Part shown: positions 7,055-51,607 of the stretch, piece after piece
Position numbering within the stretch: position 1 is the stretch's first letter
How the letters are laid out: each line of letters starts with the position of its first letter
IMG/VR virus record: IMGVR_UViG_2925891887_000001
From: a virus
Taxonomy: Duplodnaviria > Heunggongvirae > Uroviricota > Caudoviricetes
DNA: 64,000 nucleotides
Strand: one strand, 5' to 3'
Made by a program: the position numbers and the translations under genes
The notes under the pieces: model-generated
The model's input: the letters and a program-made list of their open reading frames with translations, nothing else
Databases searched by the model: none
Told to the model about the DNA's origin: nothing

Positions 7055-7135
7055 TCGGTCTGGGAGCTTATTTAAAGACCTGCTTCTGTATATATAAATA
7101 ATAAGTAACTTATTAAATATATACGGAAGCAGGCT
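7055..7135. repeat. Near-perfect palindrome (~58 bp core); one copy of an inverted pair with 41728-41810
   Basis: gacctgcttctgtatatataaataataagtaacttattaaatatatacggaagcaggc; reverse complement recurs at 41728-41785 with about 2 mismatches, and the tttaaaga flank is also shared. Confidence 0.8.
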
Positions 7136-7249
7136 TCGTAAGACATGCCAGACCTAATTAAACACCCCAGAAAACAAGTTGGTTAGCAGATGCAGTAAAC
7201 AAGTTGTTTTAGAGCGCATGGACGCGCTCTGTGTGTTTTAGAGGGATCT

Positions 7250-7882
7250 ATGACGGTCGAAAAAGACGAGGTAAAAACTCGCCTGACACCAGCGGAGTGG
7301 GCCGAAGCTGAAGCCAAATGGACGTCAGGCGAATATACACTCTCAAAGCTGGAGGAAGAGTACGGCATTCGTCGTGAAACACTCTCCAGACATTTCAAAA
7401 AGCGAGGATTAGAGAAAGGCGCGGACTCTGTTGGGAAGATGGTTCGTGAGTCTCTTAAATCTGACGCAGAGCTTCGCGCTAAAGCCCGTGCGGAAAAGAT
7501 AGAAGAACGTCGTACACGTTATGACGGCTGGGCGTATGCGTTGGGGCAGATGGTGATGGTCGAAGTCACTACGGCCAAACGTGAGGGTAAGCCTTTAGGG
7601 GCGATTGAGGATTCTCTCAAGAGCTTACAGAGAGCCAGTAATACCCTTGCAAAATGCTTTGAAGTTTCGTCCAAAGCATTGGGCATGGATCATGCGGAAA
7701 ATGACGAGGAAGAAATTCCGAACCTGGTATTTGGTGAGCTTACGCCTTCCCAGGTGGCGAAATTACGTCAGGAAGACGACGAGCCTGAAATCATCGATGA
7801 CGAATTGCTTGAGACGTTGGAAGAAGAAGCTCTAAGCGAATTTGATGCGACAGATGATGGAAGTGAAGGGGAGGACGAATAA
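7250..7882 (+). CDS. Terminase small subunit (putative)
   Basis: Immediately upstream of large terminase; N-terminal HTH-like segment (YGIRRETLSRHF), acidic C-terminus; GAGG RBS. Confidence 0.6.
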   Translation: MTVEKDEVKTRLTPAEWAEAEAKWTSGEYTLSKLEEEYGIRRETLSRHFKKRGLEKGADSVGKMVRESLKSDAELRAKARAEKIEERRTRYDGWAYALGQMVMVEVTTAKREGKPLGAIEDSLKSLQRASNTLAKCFEVSSKALGMDHAENDEEEIPNLVFGELTPSQVAKLRQEDDEPEIIDDELLETLEEEALSEFDATDDGSEGEDE

Positions 7883-9138
7883 TGGCAATCCCGTCCTCGC
7901 TCAGTCTTGTGCAACTGCATTCTGGACAGATGAAAGTCTTCCAGTCTCCGCATCGATTTAAAGTTGTTTGTGCTGGTCGACGCTGGGGAAAATCCCGGTT
8001 GTCGATCTCCACTATTATTCGTGCGGCGGCAAAGGAAAAAAAGCAAAGGGTCTGGTATGTCGCTCCTACTTACCAGATGGCTCGCCAGATTTTGTGGGAC
8101 GATCTACAGGAAGTTCTGCCTCGTAAGTGGGTTAGGAAAAAGAACGACACCACGATGACAATCGTGTTGAAGAACGGTTCGGAGATCGCCCTCAAAGGTG
8201 CTGATAAGCCTGACACTCTGCGCGGCGTAGCGTTGCATTTTGTAGTGCTTGATGAATTTCAGGATATGAAGGCTGACACCTGGTACAAGGTGTTACGACC
8301 TACTCTTTCATCGACACGCGGCGGTGCACTGATCATTGGTACGCCAAAAGGCTTCTCGGAATTTCACAAACTGTGGACTATAGGCCAGAACGTAGAGCTG
8401 CAAAGAAAGGGACAGTGGAAGAGCTGGCAGTTTGTAACTGCCGATTCTCCGTTTGTGCCTACGGCGGAAATTGAAGCTGCTAAGAACGATATGGACCCCA
8501 AATCGTTCGCTCAGGAGTACCTGGCCAGCTTTGAGAACATGTCCGGGCGCGTTTACTACCCGTTCGATCGTAACGTGCATGTAAAACCGCTTCAGTTCAA
8601 CCCTCGGTTGCCTATATGGGTAGGGCAGGACTTCAACATTGACCCGATGTCTTCAGTAATTTTGCAACCTCAGCCAAATGGTGAGCTATGGGCAATTGAT
8701 GAATTGGTGCTCTTTTCCTCTAACACGGCAGAAGTTTGTGATGAGCTTGAGAGACGCTTCTGGCGCTGGAAATCACAGGTAACGGTATTTCCAGATCCGG
8801 CAGGTGCTTATCGCCAACATGCTCGTGGGGAGTCTGACGTAGACATATTCAAAGAGAAGGGATTCTTACGTGTCGATTATTCGAAAAAGCACCCGCCAAT
8901 TGCGGATCGTGTTAATGCTGTTAACCGAATGCTGATGTCCGCATCTGGAGATATCCGGCTGTATATCGATCCGAAGTGCAAGCATTTGATTGATTCACTG
9001 GAAAAAGTCATCTACAAGCCTGGAACACGAGATATGGATAAGACAGGTGGCATTGAGCATAGTGCAGACGCATTGGGCTATCCAGTACATCGTAGGTATC
9101 CAGTCAAAAACCGTGTTATTCTTGGTGGTTCTCGATAG
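7882..9138 (+). CDS. Terminase large subunit
   Basis: Walker A VVCAGRRWGKS, Walker B-like VLDEFQDM, C-terminal nuclease-like region; 418 aa. Confidence 0.85.
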   Translation: MAIPSSLSLVQLHSGQMKVFQSPHRFKVVCAGRRWGKSRLSISTIIRAAAKEKKQRVWYVAPTYQMARQILWDDLQEVLPRKWVRKKNDTTMTIVLKNGSEIALKGADKPDTLRGVALHFVVLDEFQDMKADTWYKVLRPTLSSTRGGALIIGTPKGFSEFHKLWTIGQNVELQRKGQWKSWQFVTADSPFVPTAEIEAAKNDMDPKSFAQEYLASFENMSGRVYYPFDRNVHVKPLQFNPRLPIWVGQDFNIDPMSSVILQPQPNGELWAIDELVLFSSNTAEVCDELERRFWRWKSQVTVFPDPAGAYRQHARGESDVDIFKEKGFLRVDYSKKHPPIADRVNAVNRMLMSASGDIRLYIDPKCKHLIDSLEKVIYKPGTRDMDKTGGIEHSADALGYPVHRRYPVKNRVILGGSR

Positions 9139-9164
9139 GTAAGTAATTATCTAAGGTTATTCAA

Positions 9165-10739
9165 ATGGAATTGAACGACAAACAAATTAAGGATCTGGTG
9201 GCGCGACGCCACCCGGAATACGAAAAGAAAAAAGAACATTGGGACTTCCTCGCCAGCACTTACGCTGGCGGGCGTGGTTGGTTTACAGACAATATCTTTC
9301 GTTACTTTAAAGAGGGAGATCAGGAGTTTAAGGAGCGAGTTGAACGTGCTTATCGCTTCAACCACACTCGTGAGGTGGTAAACCTCATCAACAAATATCT
9401 CTTTAAAGAAGACATTCATAGAAATATCGAAGAGGCACCAGAGCAGATCCGCAATTTCTGGAAACGTGCGACTCGCCAGAATGCCTCTATTGACTCATTT
9501 ATGGCCGCTATTGATTTGCAGTCGTCTATTTACGGTCGCATATGGGTTGTTGTCGATAGCACGATGAGTGGTGATGTTGAGTCAGTAGCTGACGAGAAAA
9601 AGAAAGATGCTCGCGCCTACGCCTACTGGATTTCACCTCAGCAAATGCTGGATGTGGCATGGGACGACGACGGGAATATGTTGTGGGCGTTAATTGTGGA
9701 AGTCGCTCGTGATGACGCAGATCCTTTTACTTCTACAGGTCAGGAATACCAACGTTATCGTCTGTGGACACAAAACGAGTGGTATCTGTTCCGTGAGGAA
9801 GTGAAGAAGGGCGCTGGTGGAGCAGGTCGCCGTCAGGCAAAAGTTATTTTAGAGGATAGCGGTGAGCATAATCTCGGCGTAGTTCCTGTGTTTCCTGTTG
9901 ATTGTATTGGAGAAAGTGAATCACCGTATTTCAGCCCATCGTTGATCGATGATATCGCTTATCTTGATCGTGCGGTTGCAAACTATCTGTCAAACCTTGA
10001 TGCCATTATTCAGGATCAGACATTTAGCCAGTTGGCTATACCGGTACAGTCGCTTTTACCTGGTGATGAAAACCACACTAAAGTGCTTGAAATGGGCACA
10101 AAGCGAGTCTTCACCTACGATTCTGAAGGTGGAAACCAGCCGTTTTATCTGTCACCAGACCCGAAACAAGCTCAGATGATCATCACTACGATTAAGACGG
10201 TGATTAACGAAATCTACCATTCAGTTGGTGTAGCTGGTGAGCGAACGAAGCAGGACAACGCACAGGGAATCGATAATTCATCTGGTGCCGCAAAAATGTA
10301 TGACTTCCAGCGTGTAAATAGCTTGCTTGTCACAAAAGCAGAGCGTCTGGAAAGGGCTGAACGCCAAATCATGCTACTGGTTGCGAAATGGATGGGGGCA
10401 GATCTGGACGAAGACCACTCTTTAATTGCGTATCCAGAAAGTTTCGATATTCGTGGCCTTACTGATGAATTTTCTGTTGCCGAGAAACTGTCATTACTTC
10501 AGGCACCGGACTCTGTACGTCGTCACCAGATGGAAATGCTTATTGAGAAGATTTTCCCGAACATTACTGAGGCGATGAAAAAGGAATTTGATAAAGATCT
10601 CTTGAATTTTCCTCCAAAAAATGATCTAAATACCCTTGAAAATAAGTCAGTACTTACTTATGATCGTGGTGCAGCCCAAGAAAGCGGGCAAGATCAACCC
10701 CGAGGGAATGGGGACTCATCTACTCAAGAGAACGAGTGA
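9165..10739 (+). CDS. Portal protein
   Basis: 524-aa protein directly after terminase; size and position typical of portal. Confidence 0.7.
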   Translation: MELNDKQIKDLVARRHPEYEKKKEHWDFLASTYAGGRGWFTDNIFRYFKEGDQEFKERVERAYRFNHTREVVNLINKYLFKEDIHRNIEEAPEQIRNFWKRATRQNASIDSFMAAIDLQSSIYGRIWVVVDSTMSGDVESVADEKKKDARAYAYWISPQQMLDVAWDDDGNMLWALIVEVARDDADPFTSTGQEYQRYRLWTQNEWYLFREEVKKGAGGAGRRQAKVILEDSGEHNLGVVPVFPVDCIGESESPYFSPSLIDDIAYLDRAVANYLSNLDAIIQDQTFSQLAIPVQSLLPGDENHTKVLEMGTKRVFTYDSEGGNQPFYLSPDPKQAQMIITTIKTVINEIYHSVGVAGERTKQDNAQGIDNSSGAAKMYDFQRVNSLLVTKAERLERAERQIMLLVAKWMGADLDEDHSLIAYPESFDIRGLTDEFSVAEKLSLLQAPDSVRRHQMEMLIEKIFPNITEAMKKEFDKDLLNFPPKNDLNTLENKSVLTYDRGAAQESGQDQPRGNGDSSTQENE

Positions 10740-10760
10740 TAAGTAACAAAAGGAATTTTT

Positions 10761-11648
10761 ATGAATCTGTGGCAAATGCTTTTGGCCCGTCGTGGTCTGA
10801 TGGATGTCGCTGAAGCGCATGAGCGTGGAGGCGCTGGCGGTGTAGCTGCTGATAATGAGCAGAGCACACAAGATCCTGACAAACAGGGTGAACAAAAAGA
10901 GCAGCCGAAGGGCGATGACGAATACGCTGGCATGACTCAGGAAGAGTTACTGGCCGAACTTCGTAAAACCAAGAAAGCTGGTGCTGAACTGCTGAAGGAG
11001 AACATGAAGCGCAAAGAGAAAGAGCGCACATTGGCCGATCAGCTTGCTCAGTACGGTGATATCGACCCGGCGCGTGCTCGCCAGCTTTTAGAAGCTGAAC
11101 AGGCCGCAGAAAATGCACGTCGTGAGGCGGAGCAAGCTGAACTGGAGCGTCGTGGTGAGTTCGATGCTGTTAAAAAACAGATGATCGAAGCACACCAGGC
11201 AGAGCTGGCACAGCGTGACGAACGTTATACAGCACTGGAAAGTGAAAACGCATCACTGAAATCTCAATTAGTCGAGATGACCGTGGGCGCTTCCTTCAGT
11301 AACTCTCTCTTCCTACGTGACAAAGTTCTGATGACCCCGGCAAAAGCCCGCGTGATCTACGGTTCTCATTTTGAAGTGGGTGAAGACGGTAGCGTAGTGG
11401 GTTATGACAAACCGGCAGGTCATAAAGAACGAGCTGTTCTGGTTGACGGTGAAGGTAAGCCGTTGCCGTTTGAATCCGCGATTGAACGCATTGTGCGGGC
11501 AGATCCGGAAGCTGACGCATTGATGCGTAGCGAAGCCAAGCAGGGTGTAGGCTCACATTCCAAATCGACCTACACAATATCCCAACCGAAGAACAAGTCG
11601 ACTATGGATAAGTTGGCCTCCGGTCTGGGGAAAATTGGACTTAAGTAA
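10761..11648 (+). CDS. Scaffolding protein (putative)
   Basis: Charged, coiled-coil-like sequence (EAEQAAENARREAEQAELERRGE) between portal and capsid genes. Confidence 0.55.
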   Translation: MNLWQMLLARRGLMDVAEAHERGGAGGVAADNEQSTQDPDKQGEQKEQPKGDDEYAGMTQEELLAELRKTKKAGAELLKENMKRKEKERTLADQLAQYGDIDPARARQLLEAEQAAENARREAEQAELERRGEFDAVKKQMIEAHQAELAQRDERYTALESENASLKSQLVEMTVGASFSNSLFLRDKVLMTPAKARVIYGSHFEVGEDGSVVGYDKPAGHKERAVLVDGEGKPLPFESAIERIVRADPEADALMRSEAKQGVGSHSKSTYTISQPKNKSTMDKLASGLGKIGLK

Positions 11649-11673
11649 CATCTAAATCAAAGGGAATTGATAG

Positions 11674-12549
11674 ATGCCATTACTGCGTGAAGAAGCTGAA
11701 AAGCTGTCTAACAACGAACTTGAACAGGGTGTGATCGAAACTATCATCGATCGCGATGACCTGTTTGCCATCCTGCCTTTTATGAAAATTAATTCAAAGG
11801 CATATCTGTACAACCGTGAAAAAACGCTGAGCGAAGCTACTTTCATTGATGTGAACGACACCATCACCGAAGGTGCAGCAACCTTCGAAGAGAAAGTTGC
11901 GAAGCTGCGCATTCTGGCTGGCGACGTTGACGTCGACAAATTCCTGGCTACCACTATGGCTGATACCAACAACCAGCTGGCTATCCAGGTTCGTCAGAAA
12001 GTCAAAGGTCTGGCTCGTGCCTTCCGTCGCAATCTGATTGTTGGCGACTCCACCACTAACAACAAGGCGTTTGACGGCATTCCACGCCTGATGCACGCAG
12101 ATCAGAAGATCGATATCGCCGGTGCATCTATGACTTTCTCCATGTTCGACGAACTGGTCGATGCGGTGAAAGATCTTGGTGCTGACTGCATCATGATGCG
12201 TTCAGAGCACCTGCGTGCTTACCGTGCGCTGCTGCGTACAGTAAACGTAGGTCCGTCTGAAATCATGATGGAGAACTTCGGTCGTCCGATGCTGTGCCAT
12301 AACGACGTTCCGTTTATCGTAAACGACTTCATTCCGACCGATGCTGGCAAAGCAAGCATCTACTGCCTGCATCTGTCAGAAGAGAACGGCGTTACTGGTC
12401 TGTATGGCGGCGACAACGCAGGTATCGTTGTTGAAAACATTGGTACTGTACAGAACAAAGACGCAGTACGTACCCGTGTGAAGTGGTACTGCTCTCTGGC
12501 GAATAAGCACGATAAGGCTATCGCTGCACTGACCAATGTAAAAATTTAA
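11674..12549 (+). CDS. Major capsid protein
   Basis: 291-aa protein after scaffold, followed by a strong intrinsic terminator. Confidence 0.65.
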   Translation: MPLLREEAEKLSNNELEQGVIETIIDRDDLFAILPFMKINSKAYLYNREKTLSEATFIDVNDTITEGAATFEEKVAKLRILAGDVDVDKFLATTMADTNNQLAIQVRQKVKGLARAFRRNLIVGDSTTNNKAFDGIPRLMHADQKIDIAGASMTFSMFDELVDAVKDLGADCIMMRSEHLRAYRALLRTVNVGPSEIMMENFGRPMLCHNDVPFIVNDFIPTDAGKASIYCLHLSEENGVTGLYGGDNAGIVVENIGTVQNKDAVRTRVKWYCSLANKHDKAIAALTNVKI

Positions 12550-12583
12550 TCAGTGTTGTAGATAAGTAATTATCTATGTTTAA

Positions 12584-12609
12584 GGGTGGGCTATACGCCC
12601 ACCCTTTTT
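12584..12609 (+). terminator. Rho-independent terminator after capsid gene
   Basis: gggtgggc-tata-gcccaccc stem-loop followed by TTTTT. Confidence 0.75.
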
Positions 12610-12622
12610 GTAGGAGCAAGAA

Positions 12623-13543
12623 ATGCCAGAACAAAAGATGAAGATTACGGAAGAGGCATTTTCGGATTTTACGGGGCATATGTGCCGCGCCGGATTTACC
12701 AATTCTATCTCCGATGAACCTTTAACCGAGCGGCAACAAAGTCAGCTATCTGCTTGTTTGCAGGCGGTTCCCTTCTCCCAATCCGTAAACATAACTCCGG
12801 CTTCACCATCAGTTTTGGTTGGGAAAACTGTTCAACTTAGTGCAGGTATTAGTATGGGTAAGAGTGCCAGTTCATTTACCTGGAAGTCAGCCAATGATCA
12901 AATTGCAACCGTTAACGGCACTGGATTAGTAACTGGCGTAGCCCCAGGCAAAGTGAAAATTACCGCAACTGATCAGGAAACCCAGCTTTCCGCGTCAGTG
13001 GAAGTCACCGTAAATCCGGTAGCCGTTAAATCCGTAACGGTAACGCCAGACTCAACCTCTGTTGAGAAAGGGAAATCAGTCAGTCTGAAAGCGAATGTTC
13101 AGCCGTCAAATGCGACGAATAAGGCAGTTACCTGGTCTTCCAAAAATGAAGACAAGGCAACGGTAGACCAGAGCGGGAACGTTACTGGTGTAGAAGTTGG
13201 CACTGCGACGATTGAGATCGTTTCCCAAGATGGCAGCAAAAAGGCAACTGCAACGGTGGAAGTAACTGCGCCTGTTGTGGCTGTTACCGGCGTCGAAATC
13301 GACCCAAATAGCACAACCGTTGAGGCAAACAAAACTGTTCAGCTGACCGCAAATGTCGAGCCGGCAGGAGCCACAAATAAAACCGTTACTTGGGAATCCA
13401 AAAATACCGAGTTTGCAACGGTGGACAGCGAAACCGGTGTTGTAACTGGTGTTGCGGCTGGTACTGCCACAATCGAGGTTACTACCCAAGATGGTAGCCA
13501 CAAAGCGACAGCGACCGTAGAGGTCACTGCCGCACAGGAATAA
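12623..13543 (+). CDS. Ig-like (Big_2) repeat protein, probable head decoration protein
   Basis: Three tandem Big_2-like units (VTWSSKNEDKATVDQSGNVTGV...; VTWESKNTEFATVDSETGVVTGV...); position after capsid gene. Confidence 0.6.
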   Translation: MPEQKMKITEEAFSDFTGHMCRAGFTNSISDEPLTERQQSQLSACLQAVPFSQSVNITPASPSVLVGKTVQLSAGISMGKSASSFTWKSANDQIATVNGTGLVTGVAPGKVKITATDQETQLSASVEVTVNPVAVKSVTVTPDSTSVEKGKSVSLKANVQPSNATNKAVTWSSKNEDKATVDQSGNVTGVEVGTATIEIVSQDGSKKATATVEVTAPVVAVTGVEIDPNSTTVEANKTVQLTANVEPAGATNKTVTWESKNTEFATVDSETGVVTGVAAGTATIEVTTQDGSHKATATVEVTAAQE

Positions 13544-13587
13544 CCGATATTGGGCGGCGAAAGCCGCCCAAGAGGAGAGAAAGCGTT

Positions 13588-14022
13588 ATGAAACCAGCAA
13601 AAATTGTTTTATTAGAACCGCAATTTTCCGGTTATTCGGGAATGCTGTGTGGCGTTCAGTTCGAGAACGGGGTATCCGTAGCGGAGTTGCCTTTTATCGA
13701 TCAGCAAAGGATTTGTGCCTCAATGCGAGCATCAACAGTCGAGGGCAAAAATGTTTCTCCGTCTGCCGCATACAGTGATCGTGGCGAGTTGACCGCAGAC
13801 CTGATTACCGAGCCAGCAGCACCTGGCATTGTGCCAATGAAACGTGGGACACCAGATGAACCGGCCAAACAGATCCAGACTTTCACACGAGAAGAGTTGG
13901 AGTCAATTGCAGACAATGAAGGCATTGCCGGTCTACGTGTGATTGGTAATCAGGTTGGTGTCAAAGCGAAAGGAATTGTCGAGATGATTGAAGGCATCCT
14001 GAAAGCACAAGGCGGTGAGTAA
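13588..14022 (+). CDS. Hypothetical head/connector protein
   Basis: 144-aa ORF in head-tail joining region. Confidence 0.4.
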   Translation: MKPAKIVLLEPQFSGYSGMLCGVQFENGVSVAELPFIDQQRICASMRASTVEGKNVSPSAAYSDRGELTADLITEPAAPGIVPMKRGTPDEPAKQIQTFTREELESIADNEGIAGLRVIGNQVGVKAKGIVEMIEGILKAQGGE

Positions 14023-14855
14023 TGGCGCAGATCGACTCGTATCGTAGCGGTGAAGCTGTTTCCCTTTCATTTGCCTTCAACGTGCTGGATATCGAATCTG
14101 CTACCTACACAGTAAAGGACAGCACCGGGGCTATTCTCGTTGATGGCGAGCCGCTAGAAATTACCAGCGGTCAAATGTCGATTCCGGTTGTCGTGTCGGC
14201 TGAATATAACCAGCTCTCTGAGAAAGAGCGAGATCTGCGGTACGTCATTGTGAAGGCTGTTGCATCGGGTCTGACGCATGAAGAGCGGCAAATGTATGTT
14301 CTGCTGAATAGTTTTGAACTGTCGATACCAGAACAGTCGTTTGCAACTGTCGCTGATGCTCAAATGCAGGCGATCGATATGCTGAATGGGGACACTTTGC
14401 TGTCGGATGGTGAAGGCTTAATGCGCAAGCGTCTCATTGAGGCTACCAGACGAATTAAAACTTTACCGTTCTCAATCCGCAAAATTCTACGTATCGACTT
14501 TGACCGATACGATCGCCCTCAAAATATGCTGAATGTGTATGACATTCCGTGGGGAGCAGATGGAGCGTACCGGCATGATTTAGTCGATTGGGAAAAGATG
14601 ACGCAGGAGAAGTTTGAAGAGTTCCCTGACTACTTCAAAGAAGCGTTGATGCTTGCCGTTGTCAACGAAGCGTGTGAGATCGCAAATGGCAATGATGTAG
14701 CCGCAGCACGAGAGGATGGCATTTTGTCAGAGTCCATCGGTGAAACAACCAACATGTACCGTACCGGTAAAGCTGCAAACGTGCATGTGGCTCGTAGTAC
14801 CTGGCGCTTGCTGGTCAGTTACATCAACAACCGTATGATTGTTCGCCGTGCGTAA
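14022..14855 (+). CDS. Hypothetical head-tail connector protein
   Basis: 277-aa ORF with start overlapping upstream stop. Confidence 0.4.
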   Translation: MAQIDSYRSGEAVSLSFAFNVLDIESATYTVKDSTGAILVDGEPLEITSGQMSIPVVVSAEYNQLSEKERDLRYVIVKAVASGLTHEERQMYVLLNSFELSIPEQSFATVADAQMQAIDMLNGDTLLSDGEGLMRKRLIEATRRIKTLPFSIRKILRIDFDRYDRPQNMLNVYDIPWGADGAYRHDLVDWEKMTQEKFEEFPDYFKEALMLAVVNEACEIANGNDVAAAREDGILSESIGETTNMYRTGKAANVHVARSTWRLLVSYINNRMIVRRA

Positions 14856-14934
14856 CGCCAGTCGCATTATTTACTTTTGGTCGAAAGGGTTTTTGGCCAG
14901 TAATGAGAGCGACCGACAACAACAGGGAGAGAGC

Positions 14935-15279
14935 ATGAATATTTCATGGCAAACAGAAATTGCGATCTACCGCTTTGGCGCAAAGAACGTTTACGGTGAG
15001 GCGCAATTACAATTCGTCAGGAAGACGAATGTCGGCGTGGTTAAGTTCGAACAGAGTAATGAGAAATCGTCAGTTCGTGCTGATAGCTCTGGTAGTCGTG
15101 GTAAGGCGAGTCTGGAGCTGTTTGATGCTGTGTTAGTAGTCCCTTTAGAAGCGGCTGTACAACTTGATGATGTACTGATCCTTGAAGGTCAAAAATTAAA
15201 GGTGTCCAGTGTTCATCGCCGCTGGGGGCTACGAGGAAGACCTGGGCATCTTGAAGTAGGGGCGAATATATGGGTCTGA
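14935..15279 (+). CDS. Head-tail joining protein (putative)
   Basis: Track ORF 14839-15279; likely start at ATG (MNISWQ) preceded by GGGAGAGAG. Confidence 0.4.
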   Translation: MNISWQTEIAIYRFGAKNVYGEAQLQFVRKTNVGVVKFEQSNEKSSVRADSSGSRGKASLELFDAVLVVPLEAAVQLDDVLILEGQKLKVSSVHRRWGLRGRPGHLEVGANIWV

Positions 15280-15743
15280 AATACGATGCGCATCAGTTCA
15301 AACGTGCGGGGAATAGACTCAACAACAGCCAGAAAGCATTTAAGCGATATCTTATTCGGGACATGGAAAAGCTGGCGCGTTTGGTTGAGCGCCTCAGCCG
15401 TGCAATGGCCCCGCTGGAAACCGGATCTCTGGAGACAGCCATCTTTGCCAGGGTGATTAAAGAAGGTTATTCAGGGCTGCGCATTGAGCTTTCTGTGTCT
15501 GGAGCAAAACCACGTCAGGGGCATCCGGGCGTAGAAGTCGGTGACTATGCTAAGTACATGGAGCTGGGTAAATACCGACTCGGTTATCTTTCTCGAATGA
15601 AGAACGTGACAAACCCACCAATTGCCGGTGTTAAACCCCGTGTTGGGCCACACTTTCTGGAAAGAGCGGTGGAAATTAGCGAGAAGCAGTTCTCAGAAGC
15701 GATTCTTGAGGCTGCCAGAAAAGCCGGATTTACGAGAGGTTAA
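15270..15743 (+). CDS. Head-tail joining / tail completion protein (putative)
   Basis: 157-aa ORF; position only. Confidence 0.4.
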   Translation: MGLKYDAHQFKRAGNRLNNSQKAFKRYLIRDMEKLARLVERLSRAMAPLETGSLETAIFARVIKEGYSGLRIELSVSGAKPRQGHPGVEVGDYAKYMELGKYRLGYLSRMKNVTNPPIAGVKPRVGPHFLERAVEISEKQFSEAILEAARKAGFTRG

Positions 15744-15744
15744 T

Positions 15745-16128: not shown

Positions 16129-16202
16129 CTCAATTGGTAAGTATATACTTACTATTAGCGCAATGAATGCGTAGAATTAACGGAAAAAGGAGTTTTCCAT
16201 CA

Positions 16203-16949: not shown

Positions 16950-17011
16950 ATTGTGATAACCCAAGAGGCCCATGGATGGGCCTCTGTATGAGTTTAAAAG
17001 GATTTTAACCA

Positions 17012-17679: not shown

Positions 17680-17686
17680 CAAGGGA

Positions 17687-25568: not shown

Positions 25569-25585
25569 ACAAGGATTTTTTGAAC

Positions 25586-30313: not shown

Positions 30314-30406
30314 TGGTGGAAAAAAAATTTTATATCGGTAAAAATAGGTAGGTATATACTTAATGGCGGGCAAGGATAGCCCGCCAAATCAAGGAGCATA
30401 TTCAAC

Positions 30407-34705: not shown

Positions 34706-34765
34706 ACAACTTCAATCGGGGCTGGAGCTAAACCAGCCCCTGCTTAAAAGTATAAGGATATATTT

Positions 34766-35020
34766 ATGAGCTATGGTGCACAGGTTTGGTCGCCATCAAG
34801 ACAGGAGATGGTCAATGCGTTGGCCCCTGTTTATTACCTCGATTATTTTACTCCCTCTGGTTCAGGAAGTAGAACATATGAGGTTGAGGCGGGATTGGGA
34901 ATCGACTATTACATAATGGACGTAACCAATGGAAAGTACACAAGTCTTACGGTTTCTGGAAATACCATTTCGTGGTCTGGAGCTAGTGGTAATTTAAACA
35001 TATTGGTTTTTCAAAAATAA
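34766..35020 (+). CDS. Hypothetical protein (tail fibre accessory?)
   Basis: 84-aa ORF immediately downstream of tail fibre gene. Confidence 0.35.
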   Translation: MSYGAQVWSPSRQEMVNALAPVYYLDYFTPSGSGSRTYEVEAGLGIDYYIMDVTNGKYTSLTVSGNTISWSGASGNLNILVFQK

Positions 35021-35628
35021 TGTACGGAAGCAAGATATATCGATCTGACGGGAAGGTCTGGATGTCTCCTTCTTTGTCTCCTATCGTTTTTCAGAGAAAG
35101 CAGGTTGTTTCTTTGTCCGGCGGGACAGAGTTTAACACCAAAATATCTCCAGATCGTTCACCGATTATTTTTGTTGCCTATTCGAAAGCTGTTTCATTAA
35201 TAGCCAACAGAATAGTGCGTAACAACCAGGTGATTTACAGTTTCGGAGGTCAGGGTAGCGACTCTAGTGCCACGATATACGTATTTTCGAAAGGTATAGC
35301 CAAAAAAGAAACTTGGGGCATGAGTTTTTTCAATGCACAAGGGGAGGAAATCTATAATACGGCAAATATCCCACTTTCATTTACCTTTCTTAATAATACG
35401 GAGTGGAACAGCTCTGGAGGGCATGTTTTTGATTACCCTCCAGCGATAATCCCAACATATGCGAATGTGTTCGCTGTTCCAGTACCGGGCGGAGCCATGA
35501 CAATGGTTTATGGATATGCGGCATATGGAAATACTGTTAGCTCGATATTCGTAAACCAACTTAATGGCGGCCATAGTTTTAGCGTAAATGGCAGAGTACC
35601 GGTAATAAATAGAAATCTGTATAACTGA
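35020..35628 (+). CDS. Hypothetical protein (tail fibre accessory?)
   Basis: 202-aa ORF coupled to upstream ORF (ATG overlaps stop). Confidence 0.35.
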   Translation: MYGSKIYRSDGKVWMSPSLSPIVFQRKQVVSLSGGTEFNTKISPDRSPIIFVAYSKAVSLIANRIVRNNQVIYSFGGQGSDSSATIYVFSKGIAKKETWGMSFFNAQGEEIYNTANIPLSFTFLNNTEWNSSGGHVFDYPPAIIPTYANVFAVPVPGGAMTMVYGYAAYGNTVSSIFVNQLNGGHSFSVNGRVPVINRNLYN

Positions 35629-35635
35629 TGAGTAG

Positions 35636-35869
35636 ATGATGAAAAGATTATTTCTAACAATAGCTGTTGTTCTCTCTCTTACTGGCTGCCAGAAATTGCC
35701 GACACCTATATGTTACGGTGAGGCTATCATTGGTGGACAGGAGACAGTCATACCCATATATGCTGTTAAAAAAGTGAACGACTATACCTTATACAAAGCG
35801 GGTAGCATCTATAACTGGCGATGGGTAGGAGTAGGTGCTTTCTCATCAGTCCGTTGCAATGCTGAATGA
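35636..35869 (+). CDS. Small lipoprotein, Cor/Llp-like superinfection-exclusion candidate
   Basis: 77 aa; signal peptide plus lipobox (MMKRLFLTIAVVLSLTGC); sits just downstream of receptor-binding genes. Confidence 0.5.
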   Translation: MMKRLFLTIAVVLSLTGCQKLPTPICYGEAIIGGQETVIPIYAVKKVNDYTLYKAGSIYNWRWVGVGAFSSVRCNAE

Positions 35870-35950
35870 TAGGTAAGTACACACCTACAACAAAAGGGTG
35901 AAATGTGATATAAATCCGCCATCCCGATTTGACTTTTCATGGAGGAAAAC

Positions 35951-36274
35951 ATGTCGAACGAGATGGCGGGCGTTACAACAGAGCAAGTTGAGCGTATTGC
36001 CGCGATCGTTGCTCGGGAGGTTGTTGGCAAATTAGGTAAAGAGCTACGTGAAGAAATTGGCCAGGAGGTCAACGATCAGCTGAAAACCTACTTTGGTGAT
36101 ATGACCCCGGCGCAACATAGTATTCAACACTCCAACCTGGACAAACTCCTTAACCGGTTAGATTCCATCTCAAGTGGGTTCTTTGGCGGCATTGTTTCTA
36201 AAATAACGTCGTTCATTATTACCGCACTGCTTTTGGGGTTAGCCGCGTATGGCGTAAAAAATGGACTGCAATAA
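35951..36274 (+). CDS. Holin-like small membrane protein (putative)
   Basis: ATG after GGAGG; one C-terminal transmembrane segment (ITSFIITALLLGLAAYGV); directly upstream of lysis genes. Confidence 0.35.
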   Translation: MSNEMAGVTTEQVERIAAIVAREVVGKLGKELREEIGQEVNDQLKTYFGDMTPAQHSIQHSNLDKLLNRLDSISSGFFGGIVSKITSFIITALLLGLAAYGVKNGLQ

Positions 36275-36287
36275 CAGGAGATCAAGG

Positions 36288-36980
36288 ATGAAGACTCCGA
36301 GAGGTATTCGTAATAATAACCCCGGTAATCTTGATAAAGGATCACCGTGGCAAGGTCTGGTTGCGAATCCAGACGAACCGCGCTTTTGCACGTTTAAAGA
36401 CCCTGTTTGGGGGATTCGTGCACTGGCGGTGACTCTAATTACCTACCACGACAAGCGTCGCGCAAAAGACGGCTCAAGTATCGATACCATTCGTGAAGTT
36501 ATTGAACGTTGGGCACCGCCGAATGAAAACAACACTGACGCCTACATTAATGAGGTGTCTAAAGCCGTTGGTGTAACCGCAGACATGATTATCGATCTGC
36601 ATGATTACGACATTCTTCGACCTTTGGTTGAGGCAATCATTCGCCATGAGAATGGGCGAGGTCCGCTAAAAACGCTGAACACCTGGTATGCGGCAGAAGT
36701 TATTGAGGAAGGTCTGCGTCGAGCTGGCGTCGTTAAGCCGGTGAAAACCGTGAAGGCTGTTCCTGTAACTAAAGAAACAGCAGGCGCAACTGTTACAGCA
36801 GGTATTGGTCTGGCGCAGCTGGCCGATGTTATGCCGCAGGTTTCCGCTGCTATGGATAAAGCACAAGGTCATATCTCTAGCGGGGATACAGTACGCATCA
36901 TCTTCGGTATTGCCACTATTGTTGTGGCTGGATTTATCGCCTGGTCGCAGGTAAGAAGACACCAGAAAGGGATGGTCTAA
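36288..36980 (+). CDS. Lysis cassette protein, endolysin candidate with C-terminal membrane anchor
   Basis: Sits between holin-like gene and Rz/Rz1; conserved-looking N-terminal motif RNNNPGNLDKGSPWQG; C-terminal TM (IIFGIATIVVAGFIAW). Enzymatic class not resolved. Confidence 0.4.
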   Translation: MKTPRGIRNNNPGNLDKGSPWQGLVANPDEPRFCTFKDPVWGIRALAVTLITYHDKRRAKDGSSIDTIREVIERWAPPNENNTDAYINEVSKAVGVTADMIIDLHDYDILRPLVEAIIRHENGRGPLKTLNTWYAAEVIEEGLRRAGVVKPVKTVKAVPVTKETAGATVTAGIGLAQLADVMPQVSAAMDKAQGHISSGDTVRIIFGIATIVVAGFIAWSQVRRHQKGMV

Positions 36981-36981
36981 T

Positions 36982-37233
36982 ATGCTAGGCAGCCTGATGA
37001 CAAAGCTAAAAGTTGCTTTGATTACGCTGGCTGCCGTTCTTTTCGTTCTGGTCGGCGCTTACACGATGGGCGGAAATGCGGCGCGACGAGCAATGGAAGA
37101 GAAGGCAAAACAGGAAGACAGAAAACGACTTCAAAGCACAGTGGATGTCAAAAATGAAACGGTTAATGAAGTGCGGCAAAAAGATGCCTCTGGTGTTCAT
37201 CGCGAGCTGTTTGATAAATGGGTGCGTGATTAA
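36982..37233 (+). CDS. Rz-like inner-membrane spanin (i-spanin)
   Basis: N-terminal TM (LKVALITLAAVLFVLVGAY) then charged coiled-coil region; 83 aa. Confidence 0.6.
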   Translation: MLGSLMTKLKVALITLAAVLFVLVGAYTMGGNAARRAMEEKAKQEDRKRLQSTVDVKNETVNEVRQKDASGVHRELFDKWVRD

Positions 37234-37381
37234 GACGCAGGCTCCAGGCGTGCTATTCTGCGATGCTGCAAATCCTATCTATGTGAGTAGAGAGGATTTT
37301 ATGACTGAGGAAACGGAGCGACAGTTGCTTATCCACAATACGATAGGTGAAAGGCTGTGTGAGTGGGGGCACCTGAACTGA
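37145..37381 (+). CDS. Rz1-like outer-membrane lipoprotein spanin (o-spanin), overlapping Rz in +1 frame
   Basis: Alternate-frame ORF begins inside Rz and extends past its stop; signal peptide with lipobox (MKRLMKCGKKMPLVFIASC); exact start among several in-frame ATGs unresolved. Confidence 0.55.
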   Translation: MSKMKRLMKCGKKMPLVFIASCLINGCVIKTQAPGVLFCDAANPIYVSREDFMTEETERQLLIHNTIGERLCEWGHLN

Positions 37382-37605
37382 GTCGATGATTGATGAGTGG
37401 TCTCAGTTTACCTTTTATCCTAAAGATGGCATCTTCACTCATATACACGCCTGTTCACTCAAGCTCATGTTGAATCATTTAGTAATTTGATGTAGATTTA
37501 TTAGGCATCCACGTAAGTGGGCACATACAGGCTACGCATCCTCGTAGCCTTCAACCCCGAGAGGGGTGCCGCAATGACACTTGTGTTAACGGCTAAGGTG
37601 GATAT

Positions 37606-38025
37606 ATGCTAAATTATCATGACAATACGCGTTCTATGCAGACGATCCGCACCAATACTGCGGTCATCGACAGCTTTCCTATGCGTATTCACAACAGTGA
37701 AGACGCAGTAGAAGTGCGACGTATGTTGTGCCGTGAATCAGCTAACCGCCAGCACTTCATCGTCACTTTTAAGAGCGATGTGGCGCGTGCCGAAAAGATC
37801 TCTAATTCTACGTCACTGGTTAAACCGTTGGCCGAGGTTGTCGCTAACGGTAAACGAACCTCTTTTGTTTTAGATGTTGCTGAACAATATCCTGACTTGA
37901 AGTGTTTAGATCGTGATATTTCTTCACGAATCAAACAAGTTGTAGAGTCTTTTATGAAGAAATTCTGTAAAATCGATGATATGGAACCATCAACGGCACA
38001 GAATACTTCATGGCACCATCTCTAA
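37606..38025 (+). CDS. Hypothetical protein
   Basis: 139-aa ORF from track. Confidence 0.35.
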   Translation: MLNYHDNTRSMQTIRTNTAVIDSFPMRIHNSEDAVEVRRMLCRESANRQHFIVTFKSDVARAEKISNSTSLVKPLAEVVANGKRTSFVLDVAEQYPDLKCLDRDISSRIKQVVESFMKKFCKIDDMEPSTAQNTSWHHL

Positions 38026-38783
38026 TTGGTCAGGCGAACAGATTAATCCCTGAAATAGAAGACTACAGCAAGGTCTTGTCTGAAATGCCGAGAGCGACGA
38101 GAATTATCGCTCTCGGTGAGTTCTATTTTATCTCCCGAGGTTTCGATCTAATTCGATTTACCGAATACGAGCTTGTTGATTCGGCCTATGAACGCTGTAT
38201 TGTTGGCGAGTGTCTTGAGTCATGTGATCCTGATTACCAAGAGCAGGAAGTTAAGCGACTCAAACGTGCTGGTTACACACCTCTTGAGATAGGAGCAGAA
38301 ATTGAATCCTACAAGTTGCATGTGGGGCAGCCAGTCCAAACAGTCTTCCGCGTGGCCTACTGCGAGTTTCCAATCAAGGATAAATCTGGAGTAAAAGTCA
38401 GCGCCAAGCAGATTAGAGGGGTTTTTACTCATGCTGATTATATGGGATTAGGCATCGCAAGTTTTGCTTACCTTTATCTCGTAGATAAGTATCAGTACTT
38501 GGTTTGCGATACGTTACAGACGGTAAAAGGCGCAACTCTTTGGGCTGTGAGTATGCGCAAACATGGACTGGTCGAAATTTACGATACGAAGAACGAAAAT
38601 TTTATAGAGGAATTGGGTGAGGATGCCTGTGGCGTAAGTGGTTTTATTCCGTGGGATATCGGTAAGTCTGACGGAGGCCAGATGCGAAGACGTGAAGAGT
38701 GGGGGACTAATAAAATCAATCTCACCCCAGGTGCTTGTACTCATATAGTGAACATTCTGACTAAACGATCTATGAATCAATAA
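38010..38783 (+). CDS. Hypothetical protein
   Basis: 257-aa ORF from track; followed by intrinsic terminator. Confidence 0.35.
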   Translation: MAPSLIGQANRLIPEIEDYSKVLSEMPRATRIIALGEFYFISRGFDLIRFTEYELVDSAYERCIVGECLESCDPDYQEQEVKRLKRAGYTPLEIGAEIESYKLHVGQPVQTVFRVAYCEFPIKDKSGVKVSAKQIRGVFTHADYMGLGIASFAYLYLVDKYQYLVCDTLQTVKGATLWAVSMRKHGLVEIYDTKNENFIEELGEDACGVSGFIPWDIGKSDGGQMRRREEWGTNKINLTPGACTHIVNILTKRSMNQ

Positions 38784-38805
38784 ACCCGCTACGGCGGGTT
38801 TTTTG
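38784..38805 (+). terminator. Rho-independent terminator
   Basis: acccgc-tacg-gcgggt stem followed by TTTTT. Confidence 0.7.
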
Positions 38806-38932
38806 TTATTAAGCCCCCCCTATGTACCTATCATTAAACCTTTACACCGCAGCCGTAGGCATTTAGGCTATATCACATATAAGAAAACAAGTTGTTTCAG
38901 ACGATAATTATATACGCAAAGGGAACTCTCCA

Positions 38933-39601
38933 ATGACCAAGATCTTTGTGGTTGGCGGCACAAAGGGCGGGCCTGGCAAATCCACCGTTGCCCAGCAAAT
39001 TGCCGTTTGCCTGAAAGTCAAAAAGAAGAAGAAGGTTTATATTACCGATATAGATATTCAGCGCACGACAACGAGCTGGTGTGAAGACCGTCGACAGAAC
39101 GAAGACCTTGAGCTGATTCCTTTCGCATACGTTCAGGATGACATCATTAAGCACCTAAAATCGCTTCAGGGTAGAGCTGAGTTTGTAGTGGTAGATGCTG
39201 GTGGCTTCGACTCCGAAATTCAGCGACAAGCGATGCTGATGGCTGACGTTATCATTATCCCGCTGCGTCCTAAGCGTCGTGATTTGAAATCTTTACGTGA
39301 CATCGATCCTATTATCGACAATGTTCGCAATGTAAACGATAAAGTGAAGGTCCGCGCGGTCATGAACCAGTGCCCGGCTTTGCCATCACAAGTGTCTCGC
39401 ATTCTGGCGGCTAAAGAGATTGTTGAGACGTTTGGCATCGAGTCTGCGCCAGTCAATCTATATAACCGCAACGTCTATGATGATGCGGAAGAGTCTGGTC
39501 GTTCTATCTTTGAAATGACCGGTAGCGAGCGCGACAAAAAGGCGGAAGCCGAGTTTGAAGAATTTGTAGATTATCTGTTGAGTCTGGAGGAAGAAGAATA
39601 A
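38933..39601 (+). CDS. ParA/ParF-like partition ATPase (type Ib)
   Basis: Deviant Walker A GGTKGGPGKST, small size (222 aa), acidic C-terminus. Confidence 0.8.
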   Translation: MTKIFVVGGTKGGPGKSTVAQQIAVCLKVKKKKKVYITDIDIQRTTTSWCEDRRQNEDLELIPFAYVQDDIIKHLKSLQGRAEFVVVDAGGFDSEIQRQAMLMADVIIIPLRPKRRDLKSLRDIDPIIDNVRNVNDKVKVRAVMNQCPALPSQVSRILAAKEIVETFGIESAPVNLYNRNVYDDAEESGRSIFEMTGSERDKKAEAEFEEFVDYLLSLEEEE

Positions 39602-39960
39602 TGTCCATGAAAATGGGTGACCTAGCAAAGCGCAAAGAGCCTGATGCACCGGCTAAGAACACAACTCCTTTGCGCCAACCAGTCAGACCACAGGGACGCC
39701 CGACTCGTGGCAAAGAGAAAATTAAAAGCCGCACAATGTCACTGGAGGACGAATACTTCGAACTGCTGGAGATGATGAAGTTCATCCCTCGCTTCGAGAA
39801 GTTCACTCGTTCTGACGTGATTCGTGCTGCTATTTTCCATCTTGCGGAGAAGACACCGCAGGAAATCGAGGACATCGTGAAACTTAACGAGGCGATCACA
39901 GCTGCCGATGTCACGATGCGTACCGATGAAATTAAACGCGAGTTGATGAAGAAAGGGTGA
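39601..39960 (+). CDS. Partition centromere-binding protein (ParG/RHH-like), putative
   Basis: Small basic protein coupled to ParA (start overlaps stop); unstructured basic N-terminus, C-terminal helix-rich region. Confidence 0.5.
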   Translation: MSMKMGDLAKRKEPDAPAKNTTPLRQPVRPQGRPTRGKEKIKSRTMSLEDEYFELLEMMKFIPRFEKFTRSDVIRAAIFHLAEKTPQEIEDIVKLNEAITAADVTMRTDEIKRELMKKG

Positions 39961-40011
39961 TTATATTGGGCGTTTGTTACGCCCAATATATGAGTTGAAG
40001 GATAGACACCA

Positions 40012-41718
40012 ATGGAATCGATAGAAGTATTTTTAAAAAATTTTTTGGACTCAGATCATCGGGTTGCTGTCATAAAAGGAAATTGGGGAGTAGGTAAAAC
40101 GCATTATTGGAATAGCTTTTATACTAAACATTCTAAAAAATTAGATTTTAATGCATATTCATATGTTTCTTTGTTTGGAATAAATTCTATTGGAGACATT
40201 AAAAAAGCTCTTTATCATTGTGCCACACCAATTAATGAAAAGAAATATAAAGAACTGATTTTATCTGAAACGGATCGAACTATGATTCGTTATAGAAATG
40301 GGTTTTGGGGATGGTTGAAATACAACTCCTTGTCAAAATTTATAATACATTTTGGAAAGAACGATTTTTTTGGGTTCAAAACTGATAATCTGCTGTCATC
40401 TCTTGAGTATAAATTTGTTAATAATTATTTGGTTTGCATTGATGATATTGAACGAAAAGGTAGTGCGCTAGAAATTAAAGAGATTATGGGGGTAATTGAT
40501 GAGTTGGCAAGAAGAAAAAATTGCAAGGTTGTTCTAATATTAAATGAAGATAACTTACATGAAGAAACTGCACAACAACAGTTTTTAGAGTATAGAGAAA
40601 AAATAATTGATGTGGAAATAAAATACGATCCCACGCCTGAGAAAAACTTAAGAAAAGTTTTTTATGAGACTGACCCTGATTTTCTTTTGTTAAAAAACCT
40701 AGCAAATGATTTAAACATCAAAAACATTAGAATATTAAATAAAATAAAATCATCTCTAGTTATATTTAGAGATGTGCTAAAGTTAGCAGAGGATAAGGTT
40801 AGAGAAAGTTTTATTAATAGATTGGTCTTATTTTCAGTGGTTTACTATTTTGGTGTTCCTAGCGTTGATTATGCTTCATTTAAGGAGTCAATCAAAAATA
40901 TACATGCATTCGACTATATGTTAGATGATAAAGATGAAAAGGAAGAAGTTAACTCTGTATATTCATTTGTTAATAGCCTTGATGTTATTTATGAACGAGC
41001 AGAAAGTGCTTTCGATGATGATATAGATTTTTACCTTAAGAACGGTTATGTTTCTTCTGAAAGCAATATTCTAAATATAATAAAAGAAAAAAATGAACAA
41101 TATAGAGATAATAGGGTTTTATGTGAGGTTTATAAAATTTGGGATGTTTTTAGAAACTCTTTTAAAGATAATGAATCAGAGTTTATTTTTCAAATTGAGC
41201 GCGTAATTAACGATAGTCTGTTGCGTATACCAATTGGACAGTTCGTAGGTTTAATAAATGTCCTAATTAAATTGGATAGAGATTGTAATAATATTATAGA
41301 GGCATATGCAGATGCTTTTGTTAATAAAGACAATGCGTATGCTACATTTAATTCTTTGCGAGTAGAGATCTTCGGAAATGAAGAATTAGGTTTCAGAATT
41401 GAAAAAAAATTGAAAGATAGAAATCCAGATGACTATAACTTAGATAAAATTATAAAAAAAATAGCTGGTGGAAGATTTAACCATAGTGATGTGAATATTC
41501 TTAACAGTTTTTCTAAAGATGATTACGTAAACTGGATATTATCCTGTGATCAGGATGCTTTGAATTTAGTAGAAGAGACTATGCTCAAGTTCAAGGGTAT
41601 GCAACACCCGACAGACGAACAGAAGAGCATCACTGATAAAGCAATAGAAGCTTTGGAGGAAGTTGCTTCAAAATCAACACTTAATAAGCTGCGTGTTAAT
41701 AAAATACTCAATCATTAA
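40012..41718 (+). CDS. KAP-family P-loop NTPase-like protein, low-GC cargo gene
   Basis: Walker A GNWGVGKT and Walker B LVCIDDIER about 120 aa later (KAP-like spacing); strongly AT-rich versus flanks; bracketed by hairpin 39962-39990 and palindrome 41728-41785. Confidence 0.55.
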   Translation: MESIEVFLKNFLDSDHRVAVIKGNWGVGKTHYWNSFYTKHSKKLDFNAYSYVSLFGINSIGDIKKALYHCATPINEKKYKELILSETDRTMIRYRNGFWGWLKYNSLSKFIIHFGKNDFFGFKTDNLLSSLEYKFVNNYLVCIDDIERKGSALEIKEIMGVIDELARRKNCKVVLILNEDNLHEETAQQQFLEYREKIIDVEIKYDPTPEKNLRKVFYETDPDFLLLKNLANDLNIKNIRILNKIKSSLVIFRDVLKLAEDKVRESFINRLVLFSVVYYFGVPSVDYASFKESIKNIHAFDYMLDDKDEKEEVNSVYSFVNSLDVIYERAESAFDDDIDFYLKNGYVSSESNILNIIKEKNEQYRDNRVLCEVYKIWDVFRNSFKDNESEFIFQIERVINDSLLRIPIGQFVGLINVLIKLDRDCNNIIEAYADAFVNKDNAYATFNSLRVEIFGNEELGFRIEKKLKDRNPDDYNLDKIIKKIAGGRFNHSDVNILNSFSKDDYVNWILSCDQDALNLVEETMLKFKGMQHPTDEQKSITDKAIEALEEVASKSTLNKLRVNKILNH

Positions 41719-41727
41719 TAGATTATG

Positions 41728-41810
41728 ACCTGCTTCCGTATGTATTTAATAAGTTACTTATTATTTGTATATACAGAAGCAGGTCTTTTAAAGACGCCCA
41801 CCAGAACAAG
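41728..41810. repeat. Near-perfect palindrome; inverted copy of element at 7055-7135
   Basis: gacctgcttccgtatgtatttaataagttacttattatttgtatatacagaagcaggtc; reverse complement matches 7078-7135 with about 2 mismatches. Confidence 0.8.
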
Positions 41811-51602: not shown

Positions 51603-51607
51603 ATTTA

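Follow-up and report, generated by a model that had tools for sequence, protein, structure and literature searches.

The window analysed here, a 64,000-nt stretch of DNA from a tailed virus (Caudoviricetes; IMG/VR record IMGVR_UViG_2925891887_000001), carries two near-identical AT-rich palindromes, which we call elements A and B. Element A lies ahead of the terminase genes terS and TerL and element B after a KAP-family NTPase gene, and the pair encloses the packaging-morphogenesis-lysis-partition block, as the original prediction, an earlier note made on this DNA, had described. The window is 98-99.7% identical to the Escherichia phages CMS-2020a, PhiR41_1 and Cyrano and ∼80% identical to Salmonella phage SSU5 and its Klebsiella relatives, and on the strength of these identities we assign it to the SSU5/pHCM2-type phage-plasmids. 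SSU5/pHCM2/pMT1-type phage-plasmids are frequent in clinical Enterobacteriaceae, where they carry resistance and defence cargo between hosts, and their regulatory architecture has hardly been studied. Judged from sequence, A and B are two members of a family of conserved intergenic elements (core ∼55 bp, full extent ∼100 bp) that occupies three sites in SSU5/pHCM2-like phage-plasmids; the third site, C, lies outside the window, and the three-site family had gone unnoticed in the original prediction.

A repeat search returned the predicted pair of near-identical palindromes as the one long-range inverted repeat that stands out in the window, with arms at 7071-7133 and 41729-41791 that are 63 nt long, 95% complementary and 34,595 nt apart. 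Each core is an imperfect, AT-rich palindrome of 55 bp with the form CCTGCTTC(Y)GTATATAT..AATAAGTNACTTATT..ATATATAC(R)GAAGCAGG. Its 14-bp arms, CCTGCTTC(Y)GTATA / TATAC(R)GAAGCAGG, enclose a centre of ∼90% A+T with the inner dyad AATAAGT-N-ACTTATT, and five of the eight pairs in the lower stem (CCUGCUUC/GAAGCAGG) are G-C. A degenerate version of the core pattern matched the window twice, at A and B only, against 0.00 matches expected from shuffles. Both strands fold into long hairpins, as had been proposed; their free energies (dG) lie between -28 and -37 kcal/mol, far below those of shuffled sequence (z-scores -5.7 to -7.5). The common flank TTTAAAGA is likewise present. At A the symmetry reaches further than first described, to 7057-7154 (∼100 bp), with outer arms GGTCTGG / CCAGACC. 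At B the left outer arm is absent and the KAP-NTPase cargo stands in its place, ending 10 nt before the core. The two elements do lie in inverted orientation in the window, but because each is itself palindromic this orientation is decided by a few asymmetric positions only.

In each case a + strand gene has its stop codon 2-10 nt before the element, and 94-122 nt separate the core from the next start codon (mostly 114-117 nt at A, with a subgroup at 94-95 nt; 106-122 nt at B). The sequence directly after the core is TCTTTTAAA at B and CTTCGTAAG at A; across the family, the 9 nt that follow the core contain on average 5.5 T residues at B and C, compared with 2.9 at A. The T-tract signal is strand-specific, since no matching A-run is found to the left of the core. 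Further downstream, phylogenetic footprinting revealed promoter-like blocks between element and next gene that are alike at B and C (CCACT..CCAG(T/A)CGC-TAnnAT), and the promoter-like sequence after A differs from them. None of the blocks after A, B and C is a canonical sigma-70 match, and the motif CCAGWCGCTnTnnWAT showed no significant repetition elsewhere in the window. The coordinates of these features are collected in Table 1.

Table 1. Elements A and B and the features that adjoin them (window coordinates)
Feature	Position	Strand	Description
88-aa gene (PHROG 900)	6788..7054	+	Last gene of the ParB_N-ParB_N-ABC ATPase-299 aa-88 aa block; stop codon 2 nt before element A
Element A, full extent	7057..7154	.	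Outer arm GGTCTGGGAG at 7057-7066, 12-nt spacer, 55-bp core, spacer, outer arm CCAGACC at 7148-7154
Core palindrome A	7079..7133	.	14-bp arms CCTGCTTCTGTATA / TATACGGAAGCAGG; 27-bp centre of 90% A+T with dyad AATAAGT-A-ACTTATT; no T-tract after it
terS leader	7155..7249	+	-10-like TAATTA; 13-bp palindrome AAACAAGTTGKTT twice (7172-7184, 7197-7209); GC hairpin with T-run at 7210-7241; Shine-Dalgarno sequence
terS-like DNA-binding protein (7250-7882) and large terminase (7882-9138)	7250..9138	+	First genes downstream of A
KAP-family P-loop NTPase	40012..41718	+	Low-GC (0.31) cargo gene in the variable slot directly left of core B
Core palindrome B	41729..41783	.	Identical to the reverse complement of core A but for 3 differences; flipped relative to most relatives
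T-tract TCTTTTAAAG	41784..41807	+	Directly 3' of core B, terminator-like tail for rightward transcription; followed by right outer arm CACCAGAAC
Promoter-like block CCACTTCC..CCAGTCGC-TATCAT	41826..41860	+	∼45 nt before the start of the replication-module operon; putative, from the footprint of 29 unique orthologues
246-aa protein (PHROG 2500) and DnaB-like helicase	41900..44024	+	Conserved; first genes downstream of B

Scanning IMG/VR with the pattern gave 120 loci, of which 119 could be assigned to three orthologous sites by the homology of their flanks. Site A separates the 88-aa gene from terS; site B precedes a conserved 246-aa gene and the gene of a DnaB-like helicase (the replication operon); and site C follows a small DNA methyltransferase gene and precedes the next operon (SSU5 78304-78360; locus L002 18305-18361). 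Site C is present in E. coli relatives too, e.g. PhiR41_1 (L123 13434-13487), and has a T-tract and a conserved promoter-like block, CCAGACGCTnTAnAAT. The 120th match (L090) carries the same 13-bp arms inside a 678-aa open reading frame on an unrelated contig and was rejected as chance, because ∼1 chance match is expected for the pattern. To escape circularity, we re-sampled the relatives through their flanking proteins without using the palindrome, and found the element at 74/74 A sites and 78/78 B sites; conservation and position in relatives were thereby borne out.

By BLAST, the 86-nt element is found in 826 plasmid records from Escherichia, Klebsiella, Enterobacter, Salmonella, Citrobacter, Cronobacter and Yersinia pestis, the latter through plasmid pMT1, which retains site A. 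Among 5,426 complete E. coli genomes, 258 (∼5%) carry the element in one to three copies each; all 402 copies are on plasmids, none is chromosomal (0/402) and none is annotated. An Rfam search returned nothing at the gathering threshold, only sub-threshold look-alikes of AU-rich microRNA precursors, and the literature that we searched on SSU5, pHCM2, pMT1 and phage-plasmids with regard to palindromes, inverted repeats, termini and terminators does not mention the element.

The arm-to-arm distance varies by (TA)n slippage, between 51 and 57 bp, with site A as the most constant copy (55 bp in 67/74 loci), and the protein-anchored loci hold few uncompensated single-arm variants. The consensus fold of 16 site-A orthologues (RNAalifold) has 30 pairs, four of them with compensatory double changes; these lie in the outer stem, e.g. 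GTCTGG/CCAGAC to AACTGG/CCAGTT, and next to the core. The variable arm spacing and the tolerated single-arm mismatches would suit a hairpin better than a rigid protein dimer. Conservation of the inner dyad AATAAGTNACTTATT, found at A and B, does not extend to C and to several B variants. Copies within one genome have lineage-specific inner sequences in common, and in some genomes the A and B cores are identical; this likeness would indicate concerted evolution or a common constraint. If the former, the copies would be kept alike by recombination between them, i.e. by a gene conversion that we infer from their likeness.

More distant relatives, reached through TerS or the 246-aa protein, keep the synteny and always have an inverted repeat with an AT-rich centre in the same place, with different arms. 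At site B of Raoultella the arms are CCTGCTCCCCAT..ATGGGAAGCAGG, and Morganella has there a canonical terminator, AUGGGAGCA-loop-UGCUCCCAU-UUUCUUUC (L147), with a 9-bp GC-rich stem followed by UUUCUUUC. At site A of Raoultella (L145) we observed the arms in everted order, GAAGCAGG..CCTGCTCC. Everted arms and a compact terminator in some distant relatives suggest that the palindrome was remodelled repeatedly, through internal recombination or slippage. Scans of IMG/VR for the arm types of the distant relatives (AATAACGGCAT.., CCGCGYTTCC..) matched unrelated phages only and were uninformative.

What do these elements do? From their anatomy, positions, conservation, symmetric co-variation and T-tract asymmetry, all of which were observed directly, we infer an effect on transcripts, by termination or by processing, and regard it as an even call that the elements are transcript hairpins which terminate or insulate transcription at module boundaries. 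Terminator or insulator is the best supported of the roles originally offered: the elements directly follow + strand stop codons and are co-oriented, B has a T-tract, promoter-like sequence lies downstream, and the Morganella counterpart is a canonical terminator. In such a scheme, each element would stand at the 3' end of a large rightward transcription unit, just upstream of the promoter region of the next. The GC-clamped, AU-rich hairpin of 25-27 bp at B (and C), together with its U-tract, would be an intrinsic terminator or insulator that keeps plasmid-type and cargo transcription (par, defence cargo) out of the replication module. The hairpin at A, lacking a U-tract, might be a leaky pause, a 3'-end stabiliser or an RNase III-type processing hairpin, and would separate the ParB_N block from the terminase/late operon, which itself has a leader hairpin and T-run.

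Several observations weigh against this interpretation. Element A lacks a U-tract in every lineage and so is not a canonical terminator, and a consensus terminator scan of the window called neither A nor B. Folding energies are inconsistent with regard to strand: B favours the + strand, C the - strand and A neither, and as a sign of selection on the transcript the comparison was therefore uninformative. The window also has ordinary compact terminators elsewhere (38782-38801, 52336-52355 and 54061-54080), which makes the long AT-rich palindromes a distinct class, with extra length that termination leaves unexplained. Moreover, elements from E. coli, Salmonella, Klebsiella, Enterobacter, Citrobacter, Cronobacter and Yersinia, whose flanks have diverged to 75-80% identity, retain the very sequence of the 14-bp arms and not just their pairing. 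Such conservation exceeds what a hairpin needs and suggests a sequence-specific partner; together with the unusually long stems, it leaves room for such a partner or for RNase III processing. A literature search found no transcript data for SSU5-like elements.

Compared with the intrinsic terminators of Enterobacteria, B (and C) are alike in their GC-rich lower stem, T-rich tail, position after a stop codon and co-orientation. They differ in the length of the stem (25-27 bp, the usual being 5-14 bp) and its AU-rich upper part, in the missing U-tract of A, and in a sequence that is conserved between copies and genera.

The length of the stem also bears on an improbable alternative, namely that the elements are RNase III-type processing sites, at which long imperfect double-stranded RNA (∼25-40 bp including the outer arms) in read-through transcripts is cleaved. 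Cleavage would separate the mRNAs of modules or retro-regulate upstream genes, in the manner of lambda sib or the T7 R sites. With more than two helical turns, the stem far exceeds the length that a terminator needs, and only read-through RNA can form the extended stem, since its right outer arm is encoded beyond the T-tract. It may also be significant that A, without a U-tract, is nevertheless the most constant copy. The argument is purely structural, however: processing does not require that the arm sequence be conserved, the strand bias is inconsistent, and the proposal overlaps with that of boundary hairpins rather than excluding it. The RNase III processing hairpins of lambda (sib/tI) and T7 are long imperfect hairpins at the junctions of gene modules. 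The likeness to them, i.e. a long imperfect hairpin at a module junction whose extended stem exists only in read-through RNA, is structural only.

One of the closest parallels is with the promoter-early stem-loop cassettes (PeSLs) of T4-like phages, whose stem-loop was shown to terminate transcription (PMC2839356, PMC4122927). Like the elements described here, PeSLs recur as conserved intergenic motifs of ∼100 bp in which a stem-loop is joined to promoter sequence (in our elements, promoter-like sequence) between a stop codon and the start of the next gene; they also border variable genes and were proposed as anchors for the homologous exchange of cargo (PMC2839356, PMC4122927). Here, however, three copies occupy deep, fixed module junctions, whereas PeSLs occur by the dozen inside hyperplastic regions; the stem-loop is a 55-bp AT-rich palindrome instead of a G/C-tract hairpin; and the promoter-like parts differ among the three sites. 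Recombinants between copies were not seen (119 + 74 loci); the support for recombination between them is indirect and comes from apparent concerted evolution, A being identical to B in some genomes. The element is undescribed, yet of a familiar kind: a repeated stem-loop boundary cassette.

The likeness to PeSLs at the border of variable genes, with junctions at the motif itself, holds for B and not for A. The flank upstream of A is conserved in 74/74 loci. In contrast, when 79 genomes are compared, the 400 nt left of B sort into 21 unrelated clusters; several junctions coincide with the edge of the core, and relatives regain homology to the window exactly at element B. The slot (39961-41728) holds the KAP-family NTPase gene (GC 0.31) in the window and a DUF2971 gene in SSU5; many E. 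coli relatives have an empty slot, with the par operon adjoining element B. With a left flank that varies and homology that resumes at the element, B is the conserved right-hand edge of a cargo slot. Besides its possible role in transcription, the element would then be a fixed right-hand anchor of a hotspot of cargo exchange, and it marks the fixed edge of this hotspot beside the partition genes. If the reading as boundary hairpins holds, this family of three sites, unannotated and universal in the sampled relatives, provides concrete landmarks of the transcription units and handles on the insulation of plasmid-state genes from the lytic modules.

The conservation of the arms beyond the need for pairing brings in a different explanation, which we consider unlikely: the palindromes may be double-stranded DNA or cruciform sites for a phage-plasmid protein, such as a repressor or roadblock ('stoperator'-like), a ParB/KorB-like clamp, or a binder of N15-like dispersed centromeres, and would serve to silence or insulate three lytic modules or to segregate the plasmid. 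The lineage-specific inner sequences that A and B of one genome have in common, and the dispersal of three copies, each upstream of a promoter region, agree with this. Candidate proteins are at hand, too: a conserved block just upstream of A contains the genes of a ParB/Spo0J-like protein (aligned through the helix-turn-helix), of a second ParB_N protein (the two at 3634-4332 and 4299-5000) and of an ABC ATPase, and just upstream of B lie those of ParA and its small partner protein of 119 aa (39601-39960). A dimeric binder would fit the symmetric co-variation equally well. However, arm-to-arm distance varies between 51 and 57 bp and one-arm substitutions are common; no isolated half-sites were found elsewhere in the window, including the vicinity of regulator genes; the inner dyad is not conserved at C and in several B variants; and the + strand T-tract at B and C would be superfluous for a binding site.

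Known sites of this type, i.e. RK2 KorB O_B, N15 sopC-like sites and mycobacteriophage stoperators, resemble the elements as few, identical palindromes at operon boundaries of a genome that encodes ParB-family proteins. They are contiguous 13-16-bp palindromes (or asymmetric 13-mers), whereas the elements have two 14-bp arms with a variable spacer of ∼27 bp. A dispersed 13-bp palindrome of the same genome, AAACAAnTTGTTT, which is found at promoters, would be the better fit to a ParB/KorB-type operator and is a closer match to these known sites than A and B. More specifically, and with still greater doubt, the palindromes might be sequence-specific architectural DNA sites, possibly cruciforms extruded from the 90% A+T centres, which a conserved phage-plasmid protein recognises (e.g. 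the ParB/KorB-like CTPase pair and ABC ATPase upstream of A). The plasmid prophage would be split by these sites into three insulated domains, with its lytic modules kept silent in lysogeny, and the sites might also act as dispersed centromeres like those of N15. Were the elements indeed protein-recognised domain boundaries, they would constitute a new type of phage-plasmid control element.

Recombination or inversion, another of the roles originally suggested, received no support. According to it, the elements would be site-specific recombination sites that flip the 34.6-kb segment between them or, in a variant, copies of a mobile repeat resembling miniature inverted-repeat transposable elements (MITEs). 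In its favour, the pair is inverted in the window, core B is flipped relative to most relatives, and cargo junctions adjoin the core at B. Among 45 genomes with both sites, however, A and B are in direct orientation in 40, inverted as in the window in three, and tied in two, which makes the inverted arrangement appear as a minority state that arose from a flipped core. Chimeric flanks were absent from 119 pattern-derived and 74 terS-anchored loci; synteny across A is intact in 236 of the 258 complete E. coli plasmids, the other 22 being divergent lineages; and neither inversion isomers nor deletion products were found in the 119 + 74 loci. The spacer between the arms is ∼27 bp long (range 23-29), compared with the 2-8 bp crossover spacer of lox, hix, cix and dif sites. 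Finally, the sole site-specific recombinase that we found in the window, a tyrosine recombinase (54267-55370; PF00589), has a lox-like 13+7+13 site of its own directly upstream of its gene (54136-54168), the perfect repeat AATGATTCCATAC-CTACTAT-GTATGGAATCATT; gene and site probably form a Cre/lox-like system for multimer resolution. Orientation, flanks, synteny and the recombinase's own site thus leave inversion unsupported. A likeness of the arm to that of loxP (CTTC-GTATA) was judged coincidental, as the spacer length is incompatible. Mobility fares no better: the element is always at the same three orthologous sites, in one to three copies per genome and never chromosomal, and is therefore not mobile, by which MITEs and repeats of the REP (repetitive extragenic palindromic) or ERIC (enterobacterial repetitive intergenic consensus) kind were ruled out as well. 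We regard inversion and mobility as largely refuted.

The position of A close to the terminase genes raises the question of packaging. Copy A might be part of a packaging signal, either a cos-N-like site of symmetric cleavage or a pac site, with B and C as relics or secondary sites; this we find highly doubtful. The distance from element A to terS is 117 nt, and this stretch contains two repeats of a 13-bp motif, an order that resembles lambda cosN-cosB-Nu1; the site is retained in pMT1. Furthermore, the linear GenBank records of SSU5 (NC_018843 / JQ965645) and Cyrano (OV696614) are both opened inside palindrome A, at a point 8 nt to the right of its centre where the inner dyad has its right edge (equivalent to window 7116/7117). 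These cuts reflect either an assembly break or a convention, or else they hint at physical ends. The SSU5 junction closes perfectly, with nothing duplicated or missing; being seamless, it may be an assembly break at a hairpin or repeat, and the Cyrano cut may just follow the SSU5 convention. Also speaking against a packaging signal, there are three near-identical copies per genome, and TerL, a terminase of the Terminase_6 type, has its closest counterparts in P74-26 and T4 gp17 rather than among lambda-type cos enzymes. The 13-mer, in turn, occurs upstream of parA, dnaB and other genes as well and hence is not specific to packaging. Whatever the origin of the SSU5 cut, the elements would explain a practical nuisance, i.e. 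that assemblies and the reference SSU5 record break at these palindromes. With respect to linear ends, the elements recall the protelomerase target telRL of N15, itself a phage-plasmid, in being a ∼56-bp palindrome with nested dyads. They differ in that three copies are present and in that related plasmids and phages are recorded as circular. No protelomerase was seen among the annotated SSU5 genes viewed. We know of no hairpin-ended linear form of these phage-plasmids.

It is very improbable, in our view, that the elements are replication structures, be it DNA-unwinding elements, cruciform origins for the phage replisome or single-stranded DNA priming signals. A 90% A+T centre between GC clamps would suit such a function, B lies directly upstream of helicase-primase genes, and several dispersed copies recall the origins of T4. 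Yet GC skew does not switch at A or B, the composition being without an origin-like change, no iterons or initiator-type repeats surround A or B, and replication leaves both the placement after stop codons and the T-tracts unexplained.

Some observations concern the neighbourhood of the elements. A motif CCAG(A/T)C, the same as the right outer arm of the element, lies 1-4 nt upstream of a -10-like hexamer after all three elements (7148-7160, 41842-41857 and downstream of site C in SSU5); its position resembles, speculatively, that of a Q-binding element. In the leader of terS, the GC hairpin AGAGCGC..GCGCTCT followed by GTGTGTTTT (7210-7241) stands directly before the Shine-Dalgarno sequence and shows compensatory changes in two lineages (L018, L055). 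Its form suggests a terminator or attenuator in the leader and hints that the late operon is controlled by antitermination.

The 13-bp palindrome AAACAA-N-TTGTTT, repeated in the same leader, has 17 matches in the window as against 3.3 expected. Copies at 7172-7184, 7197-7209, 38885-38897, 42652-42664, 56281-56293 and 62318-62330 precede the start codons of terS, parA, dnaB and two other genes by 15-45 nt and have the common context TAATTAAAC..AGA-AAACAAnTTGTTT. It looks like a promoter/operator family for a regulator, possibly the ParB/KorB-like protein. Next to parA we found a single 13-mer palindrome and no centromere-type repeat array.

The block at 3634-6778 (homologues P0067, P0077 and P0078), which encodes the two ParB_N proteins, the ABC-type ATPase and a 299-aa protein, is a constant feature ahead of terS: all relatives have it, Xenorhabdus, Moellerella and pMT1 among them. 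The first of its ParB_N proteins aligns to Spo0J through the helix-turn-helix region, and in some database proteins a ParB_N domain is fused to part of the terS-like protein. Two further long local inverted repeats, unrelated in sequence to A and B, are found at 52184-52261 (20-bp arms, 38-nt spacer) and 50980-51068 (22-bp arms, 45-nt spacer), where they flank a cluster of three tRNA genes (51528-51771).

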